Position numbers and translations under genes: made by a program. From Alphaproteobacteria bacterium (GTDB taxonomy: Bacteria > Pseudomonadota > Alphaproteobacteria > RF32 > CAG-239), in contig CAAGHP010000020.1 in NCBI GenBank assembly GCA_900769705.1, positions 94,974-158,973 on the forward strand: a DNA stretch of 64,000 nucleotides, read 5' to 3'. Under the pieces are notes generated by a model. It made no database searches. It was not told the DNA's origin and saw nothing but the letters and a program-made list of their open reading frames with translations. This document shows positions 1 through 37,018 of this stretch, piece after piece; the stretch's first letter is position 1; every line of letters begins with the position of its first letter.

Positions 1-260
1 CACATGTAGCTCAATCTAATCTTGATTACAAAGATTTTCCCGAAATGGAAGAAATGTTCAGTCACCGCTTAAACTACCTGCAAAACTATGCTGATACATA
101 TTCTGCAACTCCTCTGGAAATGGTTACTTATAATCTTGAACAGGAATTTTGCGAACAAATGAATAAACGCCTAAAACTTAAAGTACGAGACTATTCTTAT
201 AATAATGAATATAACGTAGCAAAACAATATATTCAAAAAGCCATGCACAGAGCCTTTTAA
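1..260 (+). CDS. Hypothetical protein, C-terminal fragment. The reading frame is open back to base 3, so the gene starts upstream of the window.
   Basis: The ORF-track frame starting at 45 has no stop back to the window edge. No motif recognised. Confidence 0.3.
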   Translation, partial: HVAQSNLDYKDFPEMEEMFSHRLNYLQNYADTYSATPLEMVTYNLEQEFCEQMNKRLKLKVRDYSYNNEYNVAKQYIQKAMHRAF

Positions 261-793
261 ATTTCTTTATTACGGCGCAATAAAATATATAACGCCCCGT
301 TACCGCCCATTTTTTCAGACGGATGTTTATAAATCAAAATCATAGCTCTGAGGCGCGCCATATTCAGCCATTGCGGTACTTGCTTGCGCAAAACGCCTTT
401 AGCTGCAAAAATATCCTCATCCGGATGAACACGGATTCCCTTTCCGGTTATAATCATCACACAGCGGCGACCTAAAGCGTAACTTTGCGGAATAAAACTG
501 TCTACTTTGGCAAAAGCCTCATCTTCATTAAGACCGTGCAAATCCAAAATAGCCTCAACTCTGAATTCTTCGCGTTTAAATCTACGTAGAGTTGACTTAT
601 CTATTCCGCCGTTTTCAAAATCGTCTAAAAATTTGGAATAGGTGGAAAATTCCTGCTTTACGGCATAATATGTTTTTTCTTTTGGTATAATTTGACATGG
701 TTTAGCAACGGATACAAGCTGATTTGACGCCGTTTTTTTAATATCTTTAACCGCATCCCGCCAAAATTCTTCATCTTCGCTTTGCGGTGTCAT
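257..793 (-). CDS. Smr domain protein (MutS2 C-terminal-like endonuclease domain)
   Basis: LDLHGLNEDEA...VMIITGKG matches the Smr signature (LDLHG...ITGKG). Confidence 0.7.
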   Translation of the reverse strand: MTPQSEDEEFWRDAVKDIKKTASNQLVSVAKPCQIIPKEKTYYAVKQEFSTYSKFLDDFENGGIDKSTLRRFKREEFRVEAILDLHGLNEDEAFAKVDSFIPQSYALGRRCVMIITGKGIRVHPDEDIFAAKGVLRKQVPQWLNMARLRAMILIYKHPSEKMGGNGALYILLRRNKEI

Positions 794-2001
794 CAGTTCA
801 CCTTCGGAGAAGAATATTTAGGCGCCAGCAAATAATACTTGCCGGCAGAGTTCATCCGTCCGGCTTCTGCCAGGGCTTCTTCGCCGTGTCCCCAAAAATA
901 ATCGCCGCGCACCACACCTTTAATCGCACTGCCTATATCCTGAGCAAACACCACTTTTTCTATTTTTCCGTTATCCGGATTTACTGTATCCAGCCACAAC
1001 ATAGCTCCCAGCGGTATAAAACGATTGTCCACCGCCATACTGCGTCCGGCGGTTAAAGATAAACCATAAGCTCCGACCGGACCGTCGGCATCAACCACAC
1101 GCTGAAAAATAAACCTCTCGTTTTCCGCCATAACTTCTGCTGCTTTTTGTGGATTTTTACGCAGCCAATCACGGATTTTTGTCATAGACGCCTCACTTGG
1201 CTTAATCAGACCTTTTTGCAGTAAAATAGAGCCGATTCCCTTAAATTTGCGCCCATTGCTGTCGGCAAAACCGATTCTCAGTTCTGAACCGTCTTCCATA
1301 ATGGCAATCGCTGAACCTTGAATCTGCATAAAATGTATATCCACCAAATCATCGCCCCACATCAAAACCGGAGCTTTCACACCGTTTTGTTCAATTTGAC
1401 GGCGGTTATAGTATGGAATAAACTTACTGCCTTCCACTCTGCCGACTAAACGGGTATTCGGCAATGAACTGTCAAAATCTTTCAAATTTATTTCAATCAA
1501 ATCATTCGGCTTGCCATAAATCGGAAATCTGTATTTAGCGCTTTTTTCAAAAGAAGCATGAATTGTCGCCTCATAATAAGAAGTGAATTTACCTATTGTA
1601 TTGCCGTCAGCCGAAACTTCATACGGCGTAAACTCGCTCTCTAAAAACTTTTTCATCTGTGCAACGCTGTTTATTCCGGCATCAGCAAATTTTTTACAGG
1701 CTTTTTGATAATCAGTAGTTTTTATTTTTATAGCCGAATTGTATAAATAGGTATTTTTATTTTTCAAAACATTTTTGCAGTTTTTAGCAAACACCGGAAT
1801 AACCTCGCCGAAATCATCGCGATTCCATCCGGATAGTTGCGAAAAGCTTACCTTTTTTAACACAGCATTGCTTTCTTCTGCCGATGGAACGCCGGATTCC
1901 TCCCTAAAGCATCCGTTAAGCAGCAATACTAAAGCCAACGATAAAACAAAATTAAGCTGTTTTTTTAGTGGAAACCAGCACCCAATTATTGTTTTTTGCA
2001 T
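793..2001 (-). CDS. mltA: Membrane-bound lytic murein transglycosylase A (MltA-like lipoprotein)
   Basis: Signal peptide with lipobox LLNGC. C-terminal 3D-domain-like block ...GSAIKG.VRGDYFWGHGEEA...AG.MN..G.YYLL. The annotated start overlaps the upstream gene by 50 bp, so the true start is probably a downstream alternative codon. Confidence 0.7.
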   Translation of the reverse strand: MQKTIIGCWFPLKKQLNFVLSLALVLLLNGCFREESGVPSAEESNAVLKKVSFSQLSGWNRDDFGEVIPVFAKNCKNVLKNKNTYLYNSAIKIKTTDYQKACKKFADAGINSVAQMKKFLESEFTPYEVSADGNTIGKFTSYYEATIHASFEKSAKYRFPIYGKPNDLIEINLKDFDSSLPNTRLVGRVEGSKFIPYYNRRQIEQNGVKAPVLMWGDDLVDIHFMQIQGSAIAIMEDGSELRIGFADSNGRKFKGIGSILLQKGLIKPSEASMTKIRDWLRKNPQKAAEVMAENERFIFQRVVDADGPVGAYGLSLTAGRSMAVDNRFIPLGAMLWLDTVNPDNGKIEKVVFAQDIGSAIKGVVRGDYFWGHGEEALAEAGRMNSAGKYYLLAPKYSSPKVN

Positions 2002-2572
2002 TTACTATTCTTTCAAAAGTCCAAACATCGGTAATTTTCTGCACAAAGTTTTCATCGCCTTCAACAACTTCGCCTTGCGCGTTGCGCAGCAGATTAACCT
2101 GCTCGCTTACAAATTCCACCACAACTTTAATGCTATTTTTCAAAAATCTGACGTCTTTAATTTCTTTCTTATCAAAACATATAAAATCTACTTCAGATGT
2201 CATATTATTTTCTTTACGTTCCGCCAAAGTATTGTTAAAAGCTTCAAAAACTTTTTTACTGATTAAATCTTTAACCGGCTGCAAATCGCCTTTACTGAAA
2301 GCTTGTAAAACCAATTCAAAAACTTTTCCGGCCCCCTGTAAAAACATTTCTTTATTAAATTCTTCTGAGGATTCAGCTTTTACGGTAGCGTTATCCACAG
2401 CTTCCTTAGCCTTTACAATCTGCACCACATTATCAACAACCGCTTCATCATTTTTATTCACCGGTTTCAAAACAACATGTACGCTTTTATCATCGTTTTC
2501 CTTGCCTAAAACGCTGTAAAGACGCATTGCCACAAAAGCTACCAACACAAATAAAAAAATTAAATCAGTCAT
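1952..2572 (-). CDS. Tim44-like domain protein (alphaproteobacterial TimA)
   Basis: N-terminal TM anchor and a C-terminal DVWTFER...NNWVLV block typical of the Tim44-like domain. Conserved neighbourhood between secB and mltA. Confidence 0.6.
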   Translation of the reverse strand: MTDLIFLFVLVAFVAMRLYSVLGKENDDKSVHVVLKPVNKNDEAVVDNVVQIVKAKEAVDNATVKAESSEEFNKEMFLQGAGKVFELVLQAFSKGDLQPVKDLISKKVFEAFNNTLAERKENNMTSEVDFICFDKKEIKDVRFLKNSIKVVVEFVSEQVNLLRNAQGEVVEGDENFVQKITDVWTFERIVNAKNNNWVLVSTKKTA

Positions 2573-2689
2573 AAATCTCTTTTAACCTCTCCAAACATAC
2601 TATAATAATATAAAACAAATAAAATTTTTATCAATATAAATATTTGACGATTAGCTTTTTTAGTATTATTTCTTAATAAAGAAAAATTT

Positions 2690-3172
2690 ATGGAGAAAAA
2701 AATGGAAAATACTCAAAATAATAATCAACAGCCTGCAGGAATTATGATTCACAGCCAATATATCAAAGACATGTCTTTGGAAATTCCTTTGGCTCCGGAA
2801 ATATTTAAGGAAATGAACAAAAATCCTAATGTTAATGTAGACATGGGAATGAACAGCAAAAAAATGGAAGATGGCAACTACAATGTTACTTTGACCGCTA
2901 AAATGAATGCCGATATTGAAGGCAAAACTTTATTCATTGTTGAATTGTCTTATGCTGCCGTAGTTTCCGTAAATGTTCCGGAAGAGCATTTAGAGCCTGT
3001 CTTGTACATTGAAATGCCGCGCTTGCTGTTCCCGTTTGTCCGTAGTATTATCGCCAACAGCTTGTCTGCAGCCGGTTTGCCTCCGATGCTGCTGAGTCCG
3101 GTTGATTTTGTGGCTTTATATAACGCTAAAAAAGCCAAAGAAGCCGAAGAAGCTGCTAAAAAATCTGCTTAA
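2690..3172 (+). CDS. secB: Protein-export chaperone SecB
   Basis: IHSQYIKDMSLE.P.AP..F ... LYIEMPRLLFPFVRSIIANSL...P.MLLSPVDFVALY matches the SecB fold signature. About 160 aa. Confidence 0.8.
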   Translation: MEKKMENTQNNNQQPAGIMIHSQYIKDMSLEIPLAPEIFKEMNKNPNVNVDMGMNSKKMEDGNYNVTLTAKMNADIEGKTLFIVELSYAAVVSVNVPEEHLEPVLYIEMPRLLFPFVRSIIANSLSAAGLPPMLLSPVDFVALYNAKKAKEAEEAAKKSA

Positions 3173-3191
3173 TCCAAAGAAAGTACCAAAC

Positions 3192-3668
3192 ATGCGCTTA
3201 GCTTTATATCAGCCTGATATTCCGCAAAATACCGGAACTCTTTTACGATTGGGTGCCTGCCTTAATCTTGAGTTGGATATTATTGAACCTTGCGGATTCA
3301 TTTTTAATGAAAAAGCTATGCGCCGTGCCGGTATGGACTATTTAGACCTGGTACATTGCCGCCGCCATAACAGCTGGACTGATTTTATGGAATACCGTGC
3401 GCAGCATCCGGAAGAATACGGACGTTTGGTACTGATGACAACTCACAGCGCAGATTCGTTTTTAGATTTTGAGTTTAAGCCTAACGATATAATTTTAATG
3501 GGACGCGAAAGCGCCGGTGTGCCTGAAGAAATACACGAATTAGCAGACGCGCAGCTGCTGATTCCTATGTCGCCGCAAGCCCGTTCAATCAATATGGCTG
3601 TTTCTGCCGCCATGGCTTTAACTGAAGCGCTCAGACAAACAAGATTATTTCCAAAAATTAAAAAATAG
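3192..3668 (+). CDS. trmL: tRNA (cytidine/uridine34-2'-O)-methyltransferase TrmL (SpoU family)
   Basis: LYQPDIPQNTG...RAGMDYLD...LMGRESAGVPEE...IPM.P.ARSINM..AAM..TEALRQ. Start moved to the ATG at 3192, because the ORF-track start at 3102 overlaps secB. Confidence 0.7.
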   Translation: MRLALYQPDIPQNTGTLLRLGACLNLELDIIEPCGFIFNEKAMRRAGMDYLDLVHCRRHNSWTDFMEYRAQHPEEYGRLVLMTTHSADSFLDFEFKPNDIILMGRESAGVPEEIHELADAQLLIPMSPQARSINMAVSAAMALTEALRQTRLFPKIKK

Positions 3669-3765
3669 TGAAAAATTTTCAAAATTTTACATTTTTACTC
3701 TGGATTTAACCCGAAAAATGTGATATATTCACTAATGTTTTCGTGATAAATTTTATTTTTCTGGA

Positions 3766-4278
3766 GTGAACATGAGTATTAAAAAATTACCATCACTAAC
3801 TTTTAACGCCGGCGAATATGTAGTTTATCCAACACATGGTGTGGGTAAAGTTGCTGACGTGACCAAACAAAATATTGCCGGTTCCGAGCTTGAGCTTCTG
3901 GTGGTAAATTTTGACAAGGATAAAATGACTCTGCGCATTCCGACTTCCAAAATTCAGCATGTAGGCCTGCGTAAAATCTCTGATGACAAAACAATGAACG
4001 AAGCTTTTGCAACCCTCAAAGGCAAAGCTAAAATCCGCAAAATTATGTGGTCTCGCCGCGCTCAGGAATATGAAAATAAAATCAATTCCGGTAATCCTGT
4101 AGCTATCGCCGAAGTCATTCGCGATTTATACCGCAATGAAAATATCGCCGAACAATCTTACAGCGAACGCCAAATCTATGAACAGGCTGTCAGCCGTCTG
4201 GCTAGTGAAGTTTCTGTTTATAGCAACTGTTCAATTGAAGAAGCTAACAAAAAATTACTGGATATCTTGTCCAAATAA
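3766..4278 (+). CDS. CarD/CdnL family transcriptional regulator
   Basis: F..GEYVVYPTHGVGKV ... RR.MWSRRAQEY..K..SG....AEVIRDL.R......SYSERQIYE.A is the RNAP-interacting CarD family pattern. Confidence 0.7.
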   Translation: MNMSIKKLPSLTFNAGEYVVYPTHGVGKVADVTKQNIAGSELELLVVNFDKDKMTLRIPTSKIQHVGLRKISDDKTMNEAFATLKGKAKIRKIMWSRRAQEYENKINSGNPVAIAEVIRDLYRNENIAEQSYSERQIYEQAVSRLASEVSVYSNCSIEEANKKLLDILSK

Positions 4279-4301
4279 AGGCTAAAAAAGAGTATTTTTA
4301 A

Positions 4302-4337
4302 AAAGGTTGTTTCTGTTTGTACAACCTTTTTATTTTT
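4302..4337 (+). terminator. Intrinsic terminator after carD (stem aggttgt/acaacct plus T-run)
   Basis: aggttgtttctgtttgtacaacct followed by ttttattttt. Confidence 0.5.
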
Positions 4338-4515
4338 GCGTAAAAATAAGCAATTATGTCCATATTTTTTTCCCGAAAAATGCAATATTTTGCTTGAAGT
4401 CTGACGTTTTGTGTTATACATTCTAGGCAAATTGAAGTTTTTTAATTTTAGTTATGGCTCGTTTGCGGGCTGTAACTTCGTTTTAACAAAATAGCTAATA
4501 GGAGCTTAAATAACC

Positions 4516-7194
4516 ATGAGTAAATGGGTATATACATTTGGAAATGGCAAAGCCGAAGGCGATGCCAACATGCGTAATCTCCTGGGCGGTAAAGGTGCTA
4601 ACTTGGCAGAAATGAACAAAGTTGGCTTGCCTGTTCCTCCTGGATTCACCGTTACAACAGACGTTTGCACATATTACTATGCAAACAACAACACATACCC
4701 TGCTGACTTGAAAGACCAAGTTAAAGCAGCTGTTGCCGGTGTTGAAGCCATTATGGGTAAAAAATTTGCTGATCCTGAAAATCCGCTTTTGTTCTCTGTT
4801 CGTTCCGGCGCCAGAATTTCTATGCCTGGTATGATGGACACCGTTTTGAACCTCGGTTTGAACGATGAAAGCGTTAAAGGTTTGGCTAAAGTTTCTGGCA
4901 ACGAAAGATTCGCTTATGACTCTTACCGCCGTTTTATCCAAATGTTCTCTGATGTAGTTTTGGGTGCAGACCTTGATGAATACGAAGGCGCTCTTGAAGC
5001 TATGAAAAAAGCCAAAGGTTACAAATCTGATACAGATATGACAACCGAAGACTTGAAAGAATTGGTAAACGAATATAAAGAAATTGGTAAAAAATTGGGC
5101 AAAGTTGTTCCACAAGATCCTTGGGAACAATTGTGGCTTGGTATTGGCGCCGTATTTGGTTCTTGGAACGCTGCCCGCGCTATCACTTATCGTAAATTGA
5201 ACAACATCCCTGGTGATTGGGGTACAGCTTGTAACGTTCAAACCATGGTATTCGGTAATGCCGGTAACGATTCTGCAACCGGTGTATGCTTCTCTCGTGA
5301 CCCTGCTACCGGTGAAAACAAATATTACGGTGAATACTTAATCAACGCTCAAGGTGAAGACGTTGTTGCTGGTATTCGTACTCCGCAGCCTATGGGTTCT
5401 GAAGGCAAAGGCAACTCTTTGGAAGAATTGTGGCCTGATTTGTACAAACAGCTTGTAGATGTTCGTAACGCTTTGGAAGCACACTACAAAGATATGCAAG
5501 ATATGGAATTTACCATTGAGCATAAAAAATTGTGGATGTTGCAATGCCGTAACGGTAAAAGAACTGCCGCTGCAGCTGTAAGAATGGCTGTTGAAATGGT
5601 TAACGAAGGTTTGTTGACCAAAGAAGAAGCTATTATGCGCGTTGGTGCTGACCAATTAGACCAATTGTTGCACCCAATGTTGGACCCTAAAGCCAACAAA
5701 AAAGTAATTGCTACCGGTTTGCCGGCATCTCCTGGTGCTGCTGTTGGCCGTGCCGTATTCTGCGCCGAAGATGCAGAAGCTTGGGCTGCAAAAGGTGAAA
5801 AAGTTATCCTTATCCGTAACGAAACTTCTCCTGAAGATATTGGCGGTATGCACGCTTCTCAAGGTGTGATTACTGCTCGCGGCGGTATGACTTCTCACGC
5901 TGCTGTGGTTGCTCGCGGTATGGGTACTCCTTGCGTATCCGGTTCTACAGACATCACCATCGACTACAAAACTAAAACAATGTCTACAAAATCAGGCGTT
6001 GTAATTAAAGAAGGCGACTGGGTATCTTTGGATGGTGCTAAAGGTCAAATTATTGAAGGTGAAATTCCGACTGTTAGCGCATCTATGACCGGTAACTTCG
6101 GTACATTTATGGGCTGGGTTGATGAAATCCGCACTATGAGTGTTCGCGCCAACGCCGAAACTCCTGCTGACGCTAAACAAGCTTTGGCATTTGGTGCCGA
6201 AGGTATTGGTTTGGCTCGTACCGAACACATGTTCTTTGACACTAAAAGAATTTCTGATATGCGCACAATGATTTTGTCTGATGACGAAGCCGGCCGCCGT
6301 GCTGCTTTGGCTAAATTGTTGCCATACCAAAAAGAAGACTTCAAAGAATTGTACAGAACCATGAACGGTTTCCCTGTAGTTATTCGTTTGTTGGACCCAC
6401 CGCTCCATGAATTTTTGCCTCACACAGATGCAGAAATGCAGGAATTGGCTGATAAAATGGGCAAAACTTTAGCCGAAGTTAAAAACCGCGCTAACTCTTT
6501 GCACGAAATGAACCCTATGTTGGGTCACCGCGGCTGCCGTTTGCCGATTACCTATCCGGAAATCTGCGAAATGCAAACCCGCGCTATCTTGGAAGCTGCT
6601 TTGGAATGCCGCGATGAAGGCGTTAAAGTTACACCAGAAATCGAAGTTCCATTGGTTGGTTCTAAGAAAGAATTGGATATTGTTAAAAACATAATTGATA
6701 CAACTGCTAAAGCTTTGTTTGCTGAAAAAGGCAAATCTATTGAATATGAAGTTGGTACCATGATTGAATTGCCAAGAGCCGCTTTGATGGCTGAAGAAAT
6801 CGCTGCTTCTGCTGCATTCTTTGGTTTTGGTACAAACGACTTGACTCAAACAACTTTGGGTATGAGCCGTGATGATACCGGTGCTATCTTGGATTGCTAC
6901 CGCGCTAAAGGCATTTATGTTGCAGATCCGTTTGCTTCTATTGATGTTGAAGGTGTTGGTAAATTGGTTAAACGCGCTTGCGAATACGGCCGTCAAACTA
7001 ACCCGGATTTGTTGTTGGGTGTTTGCGGTGAACATGGTGGTGACCCTAAATCTATCGAGTTCTTCCAACAGTGTGGTTTAGACTATGTGTCTTGCTCACC
7101 GTTCCGTGTACCGGTAGCTCGTTTGGCTGCTGCTCAAGCTGCTATCAAATACGGTAAAACTCAAAAAGACCACGCAGAAAAGAAAGCTGCTTAA
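4516..7194 (+). CDS. ppdK: Pyruvate, phosphate dikinase
   Basis: 892 aa. PEP-utilising enzyme motifs (GGMTSHAAVVARGMG, catalytic His region) and the characteristic N-terminal ATP-grasp region MSKWVY.FG.G.AEG...MRNLLGGKGANLAEM. Confidence 0.95.
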   Translation: MSKWVYTFGNGKAEGDANMRNLLGGKGANLAEMNKVGLPVPPGFTVTTDVCTYYYANNNTYPADLKDQVKAAVAGVEAIMGKKFADPENPLLFSVRSGARISMPGMMDTVLNLGLNDESVKGLAKVSGNERFAYDSYRRFIQMFSDVVLGADLDEYEGALEAMKKAKGYKSDTDMTTEDLKELVNEYKEIGKKLGKVVPQDPWEQLWLGIGAVFGSWNAARAITYRKLNNIPGDWGTACNVQTMVFGNAGNDSATGVCFSRDPATGENKYYGEYLINAQGEDVVAGIRTPQPMGSEGKGNSLEELWPDLYKQLVDVRNALEAHYKDMQDMEFTIEHKKLWMLQCRNGKRTAAAAVRMAVEMVNEGLLTKEEAIMRVGADQLDQLLHPMLDPKANKKVIATGLPASPGAAVGRAVFCAEDAEAWAAKGEKVILIRNETSPEDIGGMHASQGVITARGGMTSHAAVVARGMGTPCVSGSTDITIDYKTKTMSTKSGVVIKEGDWVSLDGAKGQIIEGEIPTVSASMTGNFGTFMGWVDEIRTMSVRANAETPADAKQALAFGAEGIGLARTEHMFFDTKRISDMRTMILSDDEAGRRAALAKLLPYQKEDFKELYRTMNGFPVVIRLLDPPLHEFLPHTDAEMQELADKMGKTLAEVKNRANSLHEMNPMLGHRGCRLPITYPEICEMQTRAILEAALECRDEGVKVTPEIEVPLVGSKKELDIVKNIIDTTAKALFAEKGKSIEYEVGTMIELPRAALMAEEIAASAAFFGFGTNDLTQTTLGMSRDDTGAILDCYRAKGIYVADPFASIDVEGVGKLVKRACEYGRQTNPDLLLGVCGEHGGDPKSIEFFQQCGLDYVSCSPFRVPVARLAAAQAAIKYGKTQKDHAEKKAA

Positions 7195-7218
7195 TCTTTA
7201 GAGATTGACTACAAAATT

Positions 7219-7252
7219 CTCCCCGTTATTAACTTAGCGGGGAGTTTTTTTT
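7219..7252 (+). terminator. Intrinsic terminator after ppdK
   Basis: ctccccgttattaacttagcggggag plus tttttttt. Confidence 0.6.
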
Positions 7253-7386
7253 AATACGGCAATAATGGCTAATACACCGAGCATTTCTATCATCGAACGG
7301 CCAACACAATTACCCGTTCCGCTTGGCTTTGAGAGTAGCGTAGAAAAGAACAGACAATAGTTTATTCTATTTTTAAACTTATTCAT
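7234..7386 (-). CDS. Unannotated 50-aa ORF (MNKFKNRINYCLFFSTLLSKPSGTGNCVGRSMIEMLGVLAIIAVLKKTPR) with a prepilin-like G-xxxxE-hydrophobic N-terminal motif. Possible gene remnant.
   Basis: Found by hand translation of the minus strand. GAGG Shine-Dalgarno 10 nt upstream. The IEMLGVLAIIAVL segment resembles the type IV/Flp pilin processing region. Too short to be a full pilin. Confidence 0.2.
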   Translation of the reverse strand: MNKFKNRINYCLFFSTLLSKPSGTGNCVGRSMIEMLGVLAIIAVLKKTPR

Positions 7387-7687
7387 GTTTCCAAACCTCA
7401 TTTTTTATATAAAAACAAAACCCGCTGTTAAAAAGCGGGCGGATGTTCAGAAACCGTACAATAGGAAACGGCTCGACTTATTCAGCACATAGCCTTATTT
7501 AGCCGACATCCGCTCTTGGCAGAAATCGGCATATAAATCAAGTCAATATGCAATGACTCCTATTGAAAAGGGTTTCTGACGCCCTGCATTTTGCAATGCA
7601 GATTCAGTATAGCTTATCGTCGTTAAAATAAGCAAGGAAAATTTTAAGTTATATTTACAGTAAATATAACATTAAAAATGTGATAAA

Positions 7688-7742
7688 TAAAATAGAGAAA
7701 ATTTTAGCGTACACAGAAGTACGTAAATTTTCTCTATTTTGC
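7688..7742 (-). terminator. Long palindromic hairpin downstream of rho, U-rich on both sides. Probable rho and bidirectional terminator.
   Basis: aatagagaaaatttt-agcgtac-acagaa-gtacgt-aaaattttctctatt is a near-perfect 20-bp stem. Confidence 0.4.
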
Positions 7743-7799
7743 AGTTTTGATATAAACTCTCAGAAACTCGGACAGCGTATGTAAATGCGACGCATACAA

Positions 7800-9053
7800 C
7801 TATGAATTCATATTTTGGAAAAAGTCCGCATTATTTTTTGTCTGTCTGAGCTTATCCAAAAGAAATTCCATACCGTCGGTCATACCCATTTGCATTAAGA
7901 CACGGCGCAGCACCCACATTTTAGTCAGAGTTGCACGGTCAACCAGCATTTCTTCTTTACGAGTGCCGGAACGAGTAATATCTATAGTCGGGAACAAACG
8001 CTTATCGGTAAGTTTTCTATCCAAAATGATTTCAGAGTTACCTGTACCCTTAAACTCTTCAAAAATCACTTCATCCATGCGTGAACCTGTATCAATCAAA
8101 GCAGTGGCTATAATGGTTAAAGAACCGCCTTCTTCTACATTGCGGGCTGCACCTAAAAGGCGCTTAGGACGCTGTAGAGCGTTGGCATCAACACCGCCGG
8201 TAAGTACCTTACCAGATGAAGGAACAACCGCATTATAGGCGCGTCCAAGACGAGTTATTGAATCCAAAAGAATTACCACATCTTTTTTGTTTTCTACCAA
8301 ACGCTTAGCCTTTTCTATACACATTTCAGCAACTTGAACATGACGTGTAGCAGGTTCATCAAATGTAGAAGATATAACTTCACCTTTAACAGAGCGCGTC
8401 ATATCTGTAACTTCTTCAGGACGTTCATCAATAAGCAGCACCATTAAATATACTTCCGGATGATTTGTAGAAATAGCGTGAGCAATATTCTGCAGCATAA
8501 CTGTTTTACCTGTGCGAGGTGGTGCCACAATCAAGCCGCGCTGACCTTTGCCTTGCGGAGCTATTAAATCAATCACGCGAGTTGTATAGTCTTTGTCGCC
8601 GCAAATAATGTCAAAATTCAGCTTTTTAGTCGGATACAGCGGCGTTAAGTTATCAAAATTCACACGCAGCTTAGATTTTTCCGGATCATCAAAGTTAATT
8701 GCATTTACTTTTGTTAAAGCAAAATAACGTTCATTGTCTTTAGGTGCGCGGATTTCGCCTTCAACCGTATCTCCGGTGCGCAATCCAAATTTTTTAACCT
8801 GAGCAGGAGAAACGTATATATCATCAGGACTTGCTAAAAAGTTAGACTTTGAAGAACGTAAAAAACCAAATCCATCTTGCAAAACTTCTATTACACCGTC
8901 GCCACAGATAACTGTATCTACCTCAGCTAATTTTTTCATAATGGCAAAAATCAAATCCTGAACACGCATAGAAGACGCGTCTTCAACTCCCAAATCCTCA
9001 GCCTGAGTCAACAACTCTGTTGGAGATTTTTCCTTTAATTCCTTTAAATGCAT
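7800..9053 (-). CDS. rho: Transcription termination factor Rho
   Basis: N-terminal [15 protein letters not shown]...LGV, RNA-binding OB region, Walker A GKTVMLQ, Q/R loops. 417 aa. Confidence 0.95.
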
Positions 9054-9153
9054 ACTAACCTTAAATTTTTGTGATAGTTAAAAATTGAGTAATAAACATT
9101 GAAATGTTTGTTGCTATGCTTATATAAAATATGTAAGCAAAAGTCAATTGTTT

Positions 9154-9162
9154 TTATACACA
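9154..9162. promoter_or_regulatory. DnaA-box-like 9-mer TTATACACA (one mismatch to TTATCCACA)
   Basis: Direct sequence read. Confidence 0.3.
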
Positions 9163-9224
9163 AAAAATTTCCCCTTTTAAAATTTAAAAAATAAATAATT
9201 ATTGTTATTTATCCCTGCGCAAAA

Positions 9225-9246
9225 TGTGGATAAGATTCTATCCACA
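9225..9246. promoter_or_regulatory. Inverted pair of DnaA boxes, TGTGGATAA-gattc-TATCCACA
   Basis: Perfect TTATCCACA on the minus strand, plus a partner reading cTATCCACA on the plus strand (the 8-mer TATCCACA is exact; the ninth base is c, not t). Confidence 0.5.
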
Positions 9247-9279
9247 GACTTACTAACATTAACAAATTATTTAATATGG

Positions 9280-9321
9280 TTAATAAAAAGTTAATGATTC
9301 AAGAAGTTAAAAAATAGTTAA
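9280..9321. promoter_or_regulatory. Two TTAA-N7-TTAA motifs of CtrA half-site type (9280-9294 and 9307-9321)
   Basis: ttaataaaaagttaa and ttaaaaaatagttaa. These could also be chance hits in AT-rich DNA. Confidence 0.3.
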
Positions 9322-9450
9322 TAAATATTTTCAACATATCTTAATAAAAATGTTTAGATGTTAATAAGTTTGTTTAACGTTTTTACAAAAAGTGAATACT
9401 TTGTTAAAAACTTTATATAAGCTAAACTTATGCACATTTAAAGGCGTTAT

Positions 9451-9459
9451 TGTGGATAA
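9451..9459. promoter_or_regulatory. DnaA box TGTGGATAA, inside a 14-mer tgtggataagattc that is repeated identically at 9225
   Basis: Direct sequence read. Lies 31 bp upstream of the coaE start. Confidence 0.5.
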
Positions 9460-9489
9460 GATTCACAAGTTTTTGATATAAGGCAAAAG

Positions 9490-10077
9490 ATGAAAATTAT
9501 AGCGATTACTGGTTCCATAGGCTGCGGTAAATCTTTTTTGGCAAATATTATACGAAGTCTCGGATATGTGGTTTATGATGCCGACAAGTGGGTTAAATAT
9601 TTGTACTATCGTCCGGCGTTTTTAAAAGTTATTAAGCAAAATTTTCCTGAAGTTTTTGATGCAAACGGAACTTTTAATAAACGAAAATTAAGAAATTTGG
9701 TGTTTAATAATAATCAAGAGTTAAAACGGCTTGAAAAGTTAGTTCACCCCTTTTTAAAGCAAAAATTATTAAATGTTATCCGTAAAAATTCACAGACAAA
9801 CCGAGTTTTCTTTTTTGATGCGGCTTTACTGTTTGAAATGAAGTGGAATATTTATTGTCAGTCGGTTATTTTAGCTGATGTTGATAAAAATATTCAAAAA
9901 CAGCGTGTTATGATTCGCGATAATATAAGCGCTGCTGATTTTGAAAAAATTGTATCGGTGCAAATCGATAATGAGCAAAAAAAGCAATTTGTCAATGCTG
10001 TTATAAACACTGACAAGACTGAAAATTTATTGAAGATAGAATTGATTAAAATTATAGAAGAGTTAGTAAATGCGTGA
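9490..10077 (+). CDS. coaE: Dephospho-CoA kinase
   Basis: IIAITGSIGCGKS P-loop. About 195 aa. Conserved coaE–dnaQ pairing. Confidence 0.85.
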   Translation: MKIIAITGSIGCGKSFLANIIRSLGYVVYDADKWVKYLYYRPAFLKVIKQNFPEVFDANGTFNKRKLRNLVFNNNQELKRLEKLVHPFLKQKLLNVIRKNSQTNRVFFFDAALLFEMKWNIYCQSVILADVDKNIQKQRVMIRDNISAADFEKIVSVQIDNEQKKQFVNAVINTDKTENLLKIELIKIIEELVNA

Positions 10078-10786
10078 GATATGTTTTGATACTGAAACAA
10101 CAGGTTTTGATCCTGATACCGGCGATAGATTGGTGGAAATAGGCGCGGTTGAACTTATTAACCATTTGCCGACGGGTAAAATTTATCATGAATATATCAA
10201 TCCGGAACGTGATGTGCCGGAAGAAGTTGTAAAAGTCCATGGTTTGGATAATGAATTTTTGAAAGATAAGCCTATATTCAGCAAAATAGCACAGTCTTGG
10301 GTTGATTTTATAGGTGATGACGGAATTTTGGTGGCGCATAACGCCGCATTCGACTTAAAATTTATTAACTTTGAACTCAAGAGATGCGGATTTCAAACTT
10401 ATGATTGGGATAGGGTTGTTGATACATTAGCTATTGCAAAAAATGAATTTCCCGGGGCCAGAAATAATTTGGATGCTTTGTGCCGTCGTTTTAATATAGA
10501 TAATTCAGCACGTACTTTTCACGGTGCTTTACTAGATGCTCAGCTGCTGGCAGAAGTATATCTGCAGCTTTTGGGCGGTGATGAACCTAGTATAAATTTT
10601 GTTAAAGCGTCGGAAGAAACGGCTAATAAGCATACTGAAAATATCAGTTTTGCGGCAGAAAATGTGCAAAAGCGCAGTTTTCCTTTATCTGCCGAAGAAC
10701 AGCAGGCTCACATTGATTTTTTAAGTAAAAGCATAAAAAATGCTTTGTGGTTGCAAGAAACCGAAAGTGATGCTGAAAATGTTTAA
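10070..10786 (+). CDS. dnaQ: DNA polymerase III epsilon subunit (3'-5' exonuclease)
   Basis: Exo I motif FDTETTG, Exo II HNAAFD, Exo III YLQL region. Confidence 0.9.
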   Translation: MREICFDTETTGFDPDTGDRLVEIGAVELINHLPTGKIYHEYINPERDVPEEVVKVHGLDNEFLKDKPIFSKIAQSWVDFIGDDGILVAHNAAFDLKFINFELKRCGFQTYDWDRVVDTLAIAKNEFPGARNNLDALCRRFNIDNSARTFHGALLDAQLLAEVYLQLLGGDEPSINFVKASEETANKHTENISFAAENVQKRSFPLSAEEQQAHIDFLSKSIKNALWLQETESDAENV

Positions 10787-36301: not shown

Positions 36302-37018
36302 ATGAGTGAATTAAACAGTTTGCCTCCGTATATGCGGATATTATATAACAAAATTTATGCTGAAAAGAACATTTCCGGTCTTTTAGATGATGAAAGAATT
36401 GTCAAGCTGTTTCATTTTGGTTTGAAGAAAAAAATTATGAAAGATTTGCTGCGGGATATTTCAAAAAATGCTCATGTTCTGCAAATAGGTCTGACTTTCG
36501 GCGATGAGATTGAATGTATATATCAAAAAATCCGCAAGCAGGGTAAGCTTGATATTTTTGACGTTTCGGAAAAGCAGATTTCACGCGCTAAAGAAAAATA
36601 TGCCCGCAAAAACATTGAGGTTATCAATTATAATGCTGCTTTGCCTTGGGATGAAAAATATGATGTGGTTATTTGCTATAATCTTTTGCATGAGCTGCCG
36701 CTCAAAACCCGCAGGCAGGTCATGGATAATGTTTTGGCTGGTTTGACTACCGGCGGCAAGGCGATTTTTATTGACTACGCAAAACCGCTGTGGTGGCAGA
36801 TTTTACGTTATCCGCTTTTTATTTTTAACCGTTTATATAAGCCTTTTGCTGAAAGTCTATGGCAGCAGCCTTTGGAAAGTTTCTGCTCCAAAAAAGATGA
36901 ATTTCGCTGGCAGCATACCTATTATGGCGGCAAGCTTTGGCAAAAAACTATTGCTGTGCCGAAAATTTTAAGTAATGAAGATGTCAAAAAGCTGACTAAG
37001 CTATTCAGAAACAAATAG
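36302..37018 (+). CDS. Class I SAM-dependent methyltransferase
   Basis: VLQIGLTFGDE (motif I-like) ... DVVICYNLLHELP. Confidence 0.55.
   Translation: MSELNSLPPYMRILYNKIYAEKNISGLLDDERIVKLFHFGLKKKIMKDLLRDISKNAHVLQIGLTFGDEIECIYQKIRKQGKLDIFDVSEKQISRAKEKYARKNIEVINYNAALPWDEKYDVVICYNLLHELPLKTRRQVMDNVLAGLTTGGKAIFIDYAKPLWWQILRYPLFIFNRLYKPFAESLWQQPLESFCSKKDEFRWQHTYYGGKLWQKTIAVPKILSNEDVKKLTKLFRNK

Follow-up and report, generated by a model that had tools for sequence, protein, structure and literature searches.

The divergent rho/coaE spacer of an uncultured gut alphaproteobacterium as its probable chromosomal oriC

The window analyzed here, a 64,000-nucleotide stretch of DNA from an uncultured alphaproteobacterium, contains a divergent gene junction at which rho and the coaE-dnaQ pair are transcribed away from a 436-bp intergenic spacer (9054-9489), and it is this spacer that we evaluated as a candidate chromosomal origin of replication (oriC). 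The coordinates and the strong AT bias assigned to the spacer in an earlier note on this DNA were borne out, with a GC content of 22% compared with a window mean of ~39%. The three flanking genes, each of which exceeds its NCBIfam equivalog cut-off, act as outer anchors in the origin cluster that synteny defines for alphaproteobacteria (PMC2818188):

7800-9053, minus strand: rho (TIGR00767, 683 bits), left flank of the spacer and left anchor of the origin cluster
9490-10077, plus strand: coaE (TIGR00152), right flank of the spacer and, with dnaQ, right anchor of the origin cluster
10070-10786, plus strand: dnaQ (TIGR01406), right anchor of the origin cluster with coaE

The relatives of the CoaE protein (96-52% identity) derive from uncultured alphaproteobacterial metagenome-assembled genomes of the human gut (Hadza, Nepal) and of ruminants, on which grounds an affiliation with Bartonella, initially considered in view of the GC content, was dismissed. 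We lengthened the left arm by 9.7 kb using a 199,990-bp ENA metagenome contig (L033) that is identical to the window over a 10.8-kb overlap, giving a left arm from -9700 to 9053 (L033 10538-20537 plus window 1-9053) and a total of 74 kb of examined sequence. An Rfam search returned no match in the spacer and only three tRNAs in the whole window.

Six candidate DnaA boxes were located in the spacer, of which boxes 4 and 6 had been overlooked previously:

9154-9162, plus strand: box 1, TTATACACA, which fits TTATNCACA and lies directly upstream of the putative rho -35 element
9225-9233, minus strand: box 2, a perfect TTATCCACA (top strand TGTGGATAA)
9238-9246, plus strand: box 3, CTATCCACA, paired with box 2 in inverted orientation, 4 bp apart
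9359-9367, minus strand: box 6, weak, TTATTAACA (top strand TGTTAATAA), one mismatch to TTATNCACA
9428-9436, plus strand: box 4, TTATGCACA
9451-9459, minus strand: box 5, a perfect TTATCCACA paired with box 4 across 14 bp, inside the putative coaE leader

The inverted pair at 9225-9246 (TGTGGATAA / CTATCCACA) and the one-mismatch box TTATACACA at 9154 were found as the earlier note had described them. Its placement of the box at 9451-9459 in a repeated 14-mer (TGTGGATAAGATTC, at 9225 and 9451) likewise stands, but of the three perfect boxes that it had counted the spacer holds only two. Chance expectations for spacer motifs were derived from dinucleotide-preserving shuffles of the spacer itself, such that its AT-richness is accounted for. 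Under this model, five boxes within one mismatch of TTATCCACA were observed where 0.14 are expected, a number reached in 0 of 5000 shuffles, and two perfect boxes where 0.004 are expected (0 of 5000 shuffles). TTATNCACA matches were also in excess when up to two mismatches were allowed (22 versus 10.9 expected; 3 of 3000 shuffles). The window in its entirety contains 32 boxes at zero or one mismatch, where 15.8 are expected, two of the three perfect ones sit in the spacer, and among window gaps of at least 150 bp the spacer is the sole intergenic gap with more than one DnaA box.

The divergent rho/coaE junction is kept in 21 relatives, in which the spacer measures 412-528 bp at 15-27% GC. In 20 of these the boxes hold orthologous positions, in agreement with the retention across relatives that the earlier note had named as a check, the exception being relative L012. 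Base 5 accounts for most of the variation: C, G, A and T all occur there, and the classical TTATNCACA consensus is itself degenerate at this position. Among near relatives the boxes score 0.87-1.00 in conservation compared with 0.59-0.80 for their flanks; box 1 is the lowest (0.87 versus 0.78 in the adjacent AT-rich stretch, with changes at position 5 only, A/G), box 6 is invariant (1.00), and boxes 2, 3, 4 and 5 score 0.92, 0.93, 0.93 and 0.96, respectively. The separation is wider among distant relatives, where boxes 2, 4, 5 and 6 score 0.79-0.97 compared with 0.12-0.5 for the flanks: box 2 reaches 0.90 (flanks 0.45-0.53), box 4 0.97 (flanks 0.12-0.47), box 5 0.79 and box 6 0.90. Within the 12-20 kb locus of each relative, exact TTATNCACA sites cluster in the spacer, and elsewhere there is at most one per 500-bp window.

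Replication-associated skew was measured gene by gene as top-strand GC skew at third codon positions (GC3 skew), which removes the coding-strand effect. Plain GC skew was dropped in its favor because coding-strand bias dominates that quantity and leaves it with two local minima. Among 60 genes, the maximum-likelihood change-point of GC3 skew falls exactly at the rho/coaE spacer, passing from -0.20 on the left to +0.17 on the right, and the associated log-likelihood gain increased from 50.3 with the window alone to 103.2 once the left extension was included. Genes on both strands take part in the shift, since mean GC3 skew is -0.18 for plus-strand and -0.23 for minus-strand genes to the left of the spacer and +0.16 and +0.22, respectively, to the right. 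Values are negative for 17 of the 18 left genes and positive for 37 of the 42 right genes (Mann-Whitney p = 6e-8), and the switch, which runs from negative to positive, has the polarity expected at an origin, as opposed to a terminus. The skew also moves toward positive at the orthologous spacer in those 20 relatives for which gene calls exist to the left and right of it, despite differing left neighbors; for the most distant relatives the left-arm skew is about zero, not clearly negative. The GC-skew check suggested in the earlier note is thus favorable to the spacer, as far as 74 kb allows. The window extreme in coding-strand GC3 skew (-0.46) belongs to a 1713-amino-acid autotransporter gene on the lagging strand (21148-26289, minus strand).

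The gene order around the spacer can be set against that of better characterized members of the class. In Azospirillum sp. B510 and Magnetospirillum the arrangement is rho-hypothetical-hemH-hemE-(origin)-hypothetical-maf-aroE-coaE-dnaQ, with parAB downstream of dnaQ (PMC2818188), and the origins of Caulobacter and Rickettsia have hemE as one neighbor and the COG1806/DUF299 gene as the other (PMC1914354). Our sequence retains rho and coaE-dnaQ as outer anchors, with a mnmE-gidAB-parAB block in the wider neighborhood, but hemE, hemH, DUF299, maf and aroE are all absent from the annotated genes of the window and its left extension. Because the outer anchors are kept while the six inner genes are missing from these 74 kb, the spacer appears to be a collapsed form of the class-typical origin locus in which rho and coaE have come to abut the origin directly. 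Further origin-proximal markers in the window comprise dnaE, parAB and parS sites, the latter two in the cluster that the earlier note had correctly reported ~43 kb from the spacer:

52705-59242, plus strand: segregation block mnmE-mnmG-(PHP phosphatase)-rsmG-parA-parB, 43-50 kb to the right of the spacer
57563-59242, plus strand: parA/parB, within the segregation block
52872-52887, 55702-55717 and 56948-56963: perfect parS sites (TGTTTCACGTGAAACA), three in all, within the reading frames of mnmE, mnmG and rsmG

Closer to the spacer, at a distance of 17 kb, a parS copy with one mismatch lies between the autotransporter and Hsp20 genes (26337-26352).

The displaced position of the segregation block can be rationalized by comparison with the distant relative L022, which has parB-parA-rsmG-mnmG-mnmE-rho, all on the minus strand, to the left of the spacer (block at L022 50-7112) and coaE-dnaQ-pgeF-ppdK to the right, and which represents the canonical arrangement. 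A single inversion with ends just left of rho and ~43 kb right of the spacer would explain the moved block, and such an inversion keeps genes co-oriented with replication, as origin-spanning inversions do. The ppdK gene likewise swaps sides (4516-7194, plus strand, in the window; 12201-14900 in L022), which fits origin-spanning inversions. It stays near the origin in every lineage examined, while the DUF299/COG1806 gene, which encodes the PPDK regulatory protein, is missing from the locus. The convergent gap between ppdK and rho (7195-7799) is 605 bp long and contains three terminator-like hairpins together with a called open reading frame of 50 amino acids (7234-7386, minus strand); its counterpart in relative L001 is ~1.3 kb. 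Farther to the right, an RquA-like rhodoquinone biosynthesis methyltransferase gene (36302-37018, plus strand) scores 168.9 bits, just under the equivalog cut-off of 175, and is compatible with an anaerobic gut lifestyle and perhaps with the missing hemE and hemH at the origin locus.

Taken together, the box cluster, the GC3 switch, the conservation among relatives, the class-typical synteny and the rearrangement pattern support the origin assignment proposed in the earlier note, and we conclude that the rho/coaE spacer is very probably the DnaA-dependent chromosomal oriC of this uncultured gut alphaproteobacterium.

Within the spacer, two segments are plausible sites of initial duplex opening:

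9163-9213: candidate DNA unwinding element, AT-rich and ending in the T-rich TTATTGTTATTTAT (9197-9213)
9214-9224: GC-rich spacer CCCTGCGC between the candidate unwinding element and box 2
9251-9350: second low-stability region, with GTTAA repeats at 9279, 9290, 9306 and 9317 that are spaced 11, 16 and 11 bp apart

The 40-mer at 9174, inside the first segment, is among the least stable of the window, and the TTGTTATTT.TTTAT core of this segment is kept across the entire clade. In the second segment, the 100-mer starting at 9268 is the second least stable in the window. GTTAA/TTAAC occurs nine times in the spacer, where 3.1 occurrences are expected. We favor 9163-9213 over 9251-9350 as the putative unwinding element because its order of T-rich stretch, GC-rich spacer and TGTGGATAA mirrors that of the 13-mer R and box R1 of the Escherichia coli origin.

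The second low-stability region also accommodates the two TTAA-N7-TTAA elements that the earlier note had identified at 9280 and 9307, and both extend to the longer form TTAA-N7-TTAAC:

9279-9294, minus strand: CtrA-type motif a, TTAACTTTTTATTAAC
9306-9321, minus strand: CtrA-type motif b, TTAACTATTTTTTAAC

The plain TTAA-N7-TTAA pattern, found twice where 0.35 occurrences are expected (259 of 5000 shuffles), is weak evidence when taken alone. The full nine-base CtrA consensus TTAA-N7-TTAAC, which both motifs fit, is rarer, with 0.09 occurrences expected in the spacer (24 of 3000 shuffles, p ~0.008) and three sites in the entire 64 kb. Near relatives conserve motif a at 0.89 and motif b at 0.90, and in L001-L010 and L013 the TTAA half-sites are invariant and the intervening spacers variable. 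Both motifs are absent in L012 and L014, and the distant relatives L015-L022 have no TTAA-N7-TTAA aligned with either of them; the matches found in L017, L018 and L022 sit further downstream. The annotated genes of the 74 kb examined do not include ctrA, and no clade-wide search for that gene was made.

An alternative that we hold to be a serious contender, albeit at somewhat less than even probability, is that the GTTAA repeats are not CtrA sites but helically phased low-affinity DnaA sites or AT-rich repeats of an unwinding element. The repeated nGTTAATAA departs from TGTGGATAA by two or three mismatches, shares the orientation of boxes 2 and 5, recurs at 11 bp within each pair and lies inside one of the least stable 100-bp segments of the window. 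This layout recalls the arrays of low-affinity DnaA sites in E. coli oriC, and the excess of TTATNCACA matches with up to two mismatches described above points the same way, as does the pair of DnaA-like boxes that aligns in L015-L022 where motif b sits. A role for CtrA at the origin is also not universal in the class, given that ctrA is lacking in some alphaproteobacteria and that the CtrA protein of Brucella does not bind its origin (PMC2877005). Against the weak-site alternative stands the fit of both motifs to the full CtrA consensus, and the combination of invariant TTAA half-sites with varying spacers and varying bases after the fourth GTTAA is better explained by a dimeric direct-repeat site than by a contiguous 9-mer. 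We assign the predicted CtrA role of the two motifs a roughly even chance of being correct.

Transcription signals of both flanking genes appear to be embedded in the same spacer:

9120-9148, minus strand: putative rho promoter, -35 TTGACT (9148-9143), 17-nt spacer, -10 TATAAG (9125-9120)
9382-9410, plus strand: putative coaE-dnaQ promoter, -35 TTTACA (9382-9387), 17-nt spacer, extended -10 TGtTAAAAA (9402-9410)
9094-9109, minus strand: conserved 5-bp hairpin AAACA-TTGAAA-TGTTT, near the 5' end of the putative rho leader

Near-relative conservation is 0.96 and 1.00 for the -35 and -10 hexamers of the rho promoter and 1.00 and 0.97 for the elements of the coaE-dnaQ promoter, the latter having a counterpart, TTGGCT-17-TGtTAATGA, in L022. 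The predicted transcription starts of rho and coaE fall near 9113 and 9417, respectively. A sigma-70 consensus scan of the spacer was uninformative, returning seven sites compared with 8.8 expected and passing over the conserved hexamers because its -10 rule is fixed; the putative rho promoter went unflagged since that rule demands T at -10 position 6. In the rho-leader hairpin, 91.9% of cells are paired and three of the five pairs change on both sides, with a covariation of 0.295 compared with 0.097 in shuffled alignments (0 of 500). This hairpin belongs to the rho mRNA, probably at its 5' end, where it may act in stability or autoregulation, and not to the origin machinery. The spacer also contains three GANTC sites, all GATTC (9234-9238, 9296-9300 and 9460-9464), compared with ~0.8 expected; two of them abut perfect DnaA boxes and the third falls between the CtrA-type motifs a and b. 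Genome-wide, GANTC has an observed/expected ratio of 0.79, which does not differ from that of other palindromes and is uninformative on CcrM.

From these features we infer DnaA binding, the unwinding site, the promoters and any role for CtrA, and we propose the following sequence of events. DnaA would fill the strong sites, namely the inverted pairs at 9225/9238 and 9428/9451 and the single boxes at 9154 and 9359, and would then oligomerize across the weaker sites that separate the two pairs, where the sequence is very AT-rich. The duplex would melt in one of the two low-stability segments, preferably 9163-9213, the helicase would be loaded, and replication would run bidirectionally from the spacer. 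The same DnaA occupancy would probably modulate the embedded divergent promoters of rho and coaE-dnaQ. In the near subclade, a CtrA-type regulator could block initiation through the two TTAA-N7-TTAAC sites in the most meltable segment.

Several observations weigh against the assignment of the spacer as the origin. The minimum of plain cumulative GC skew lies at ~2.7 kb, at the Tim44/secB junction, with a further local minimum at ~9.2 kb; we attribute the former to coding-strand bias, as 11 of the 18 left-arm genes are oriented head-on. Correspondingly, only 7 of the 18 left-arm genes are co-oriented with the proposed direction of replication, which is mildly unexpected for a left replichore. 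The skew test spans 74 kb that do not include dnaA, and a second or stronger switch may exist elsewhere, for example near dnaA. The L012 spacer (15% GC) contains degenerate boxes: exact TTATNCACA matches are absent, and of its two matches with a single mismatch just one occupies an orthologous position. No convincing IHF site was found in the spacer, as its one consensus match lies beside the coaE ribosome-binding site and was discounted, and inspection by eye for a DnaA-trio array detected scattered trios only, none of them convincing, including next to box 3.

The head-on left-arm genes include ppdK, the CarD-like gene and trmL, with the plus-strand secB standing outside the counted set, and genes of presumably high expression would not usually be oriented in this way. 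Their GC3 skew is nonetheless fully of the lagging-strand type, and the arrangement is therefore old.

An operator function for the boxes, raised as an alternative in the earlier note, is compatible with an origin. The spacer includes conserved promoter-like elements for rho as well as for coaE-dnaQ, so that some of its boxes probably influence the transcription of these genes too. The stricter proposal, in which the boxes serve only as DnaA operators for the two divergent promoters and replication starts elsewhere, we regard as improbable. DnaA is a known transcription factor, boxes 4 and 5 lie in the coaE leader, box 1 abuts the rho -35 element, and dnaA is located, together with the remaining chromosome, outside the examined sequence. 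A purely transcriptional site, however, would not give a skew switch that has origin polarity, is independent of gene strand and is repeated in relatives, nor would one expect to find it at the locus where the class keeps its origin, or at the point about which an inversion relocated parAB. Less probable still is an origin nearby but outside the spacer, for example at the divergent Tim44/secB junction (2573-2689): the plain cumulative G-C minimum (~2756), the least stable 100-mer of the window (starting at 2593), and two boxes (2391, perfect; 2430, one mismatch) all fall near this junction, but its ~117-bp gap contains no DnaA box, both nearby boxes are inside the Tim44 coding sequence, the plus-strand CarD-like and ppdK genes (3.7-7.2 kb) carry lagging-type GC3 skews of -0.32 and -0.24 and rho a leading-type skew, which places the switch to the right of the former two, and in many relatives the Tim44/secB block is not beside rho, yet the skew shifts at rho/coaE.

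The spacer thus sits where the class normally keeps its origin, which makes the assignment a useful annotation and not a surprise. It resembles Cori of Caulobacter crescentus and the predicted origins of Rickettsia and Wolbachia in being an AT-rich intergenic region of ~400 bp with DnaA boxes, TTAA-N7-TTAAC motifs and an embedded promoter (PMC1914354), and it shares with Cori-type origins a neighborhood in which rho...parAB and coaE-dnaQ border the origin from opposite sides (PMC1914354, PMC2818188). Five CtrA-type motifs are present in Cori compared with two here (PMC1914354). Cori-type origins are flanked by hemE and DUF299/COG1806, neither of which occurs here within 74 kb, and the present spacer further departs from Cori in lacking a convincing IHF site and in being known from sequence alone. 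The DnaA boxes of Cori are weaker variants, whereas those described here are near-perfect to the E. coli-type consensus. The predicted oriC regions of Azospirillum sp. B510, A. baldaniorum Sp245 and Magnetospirillum AMB-1 have the same outer anchors with parAB nearby and were assigned from GC skew and DnaA boxes (PMC2818188). In these genera six genes (a hypothetical gene, hemH, hemE, a hypothetical gene/yqfL, maf and aroE) separate the anchors from the origin, whereas here the anchors flank it directly, and parAB lies ~48 kb away compared with ~12 kb in Azospirillum.

Likeness to E. coli oriC extends to the TTATNCACA consensus, to the succession of a T-rich segment, a short GC-rich spacer and TGTGGATAA, corresponding to 13-mer R plus R1, and to candidate phased weak sites between strong anchor boxes. 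The two differ in that the spacer has no GATC clusters, carries its boxes as inverted pairs and has other flanking genes (mnmG/mioC in E. coli), and we read the resemblance as one of layout only and not of homology. We also considered, as a speculative and on balance unlikely possibility, that the spacer is a compacted hybrid origin combining strong E. coli-type boxes, the geometry of unwinding element, spacer and R1, a lineage-specific pair of CtrA-type motifs and overlapping rho and coaE-dnaQ promoters. Were this true, occupancy by DnaA, and possibly by CtrA, would mechanically link initiation with the expression of both the transcription terminator and the proofreading subunit of DNA polymerase III.

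DnaA-box origins at this conserved locus are already well known in alphaproteobacteria, and our understanding of how origins work is unchanged by the assignment of the spacer; the small twist is the loss of hemE and DUF299. The class-typical origin locus would thus survive the loss of its textbook markers, and origin finders that rely on hemE would miss loci of this kind. For a widespread uncultured clade of gut and rumen Alphaproteobacteria, the assignment would fix the origin and thereby supply a point from which to number genome coordinates, a reference position in metagenomic peak-to-trough estimates of growth rate and a frame for origin-centered rearrangements.

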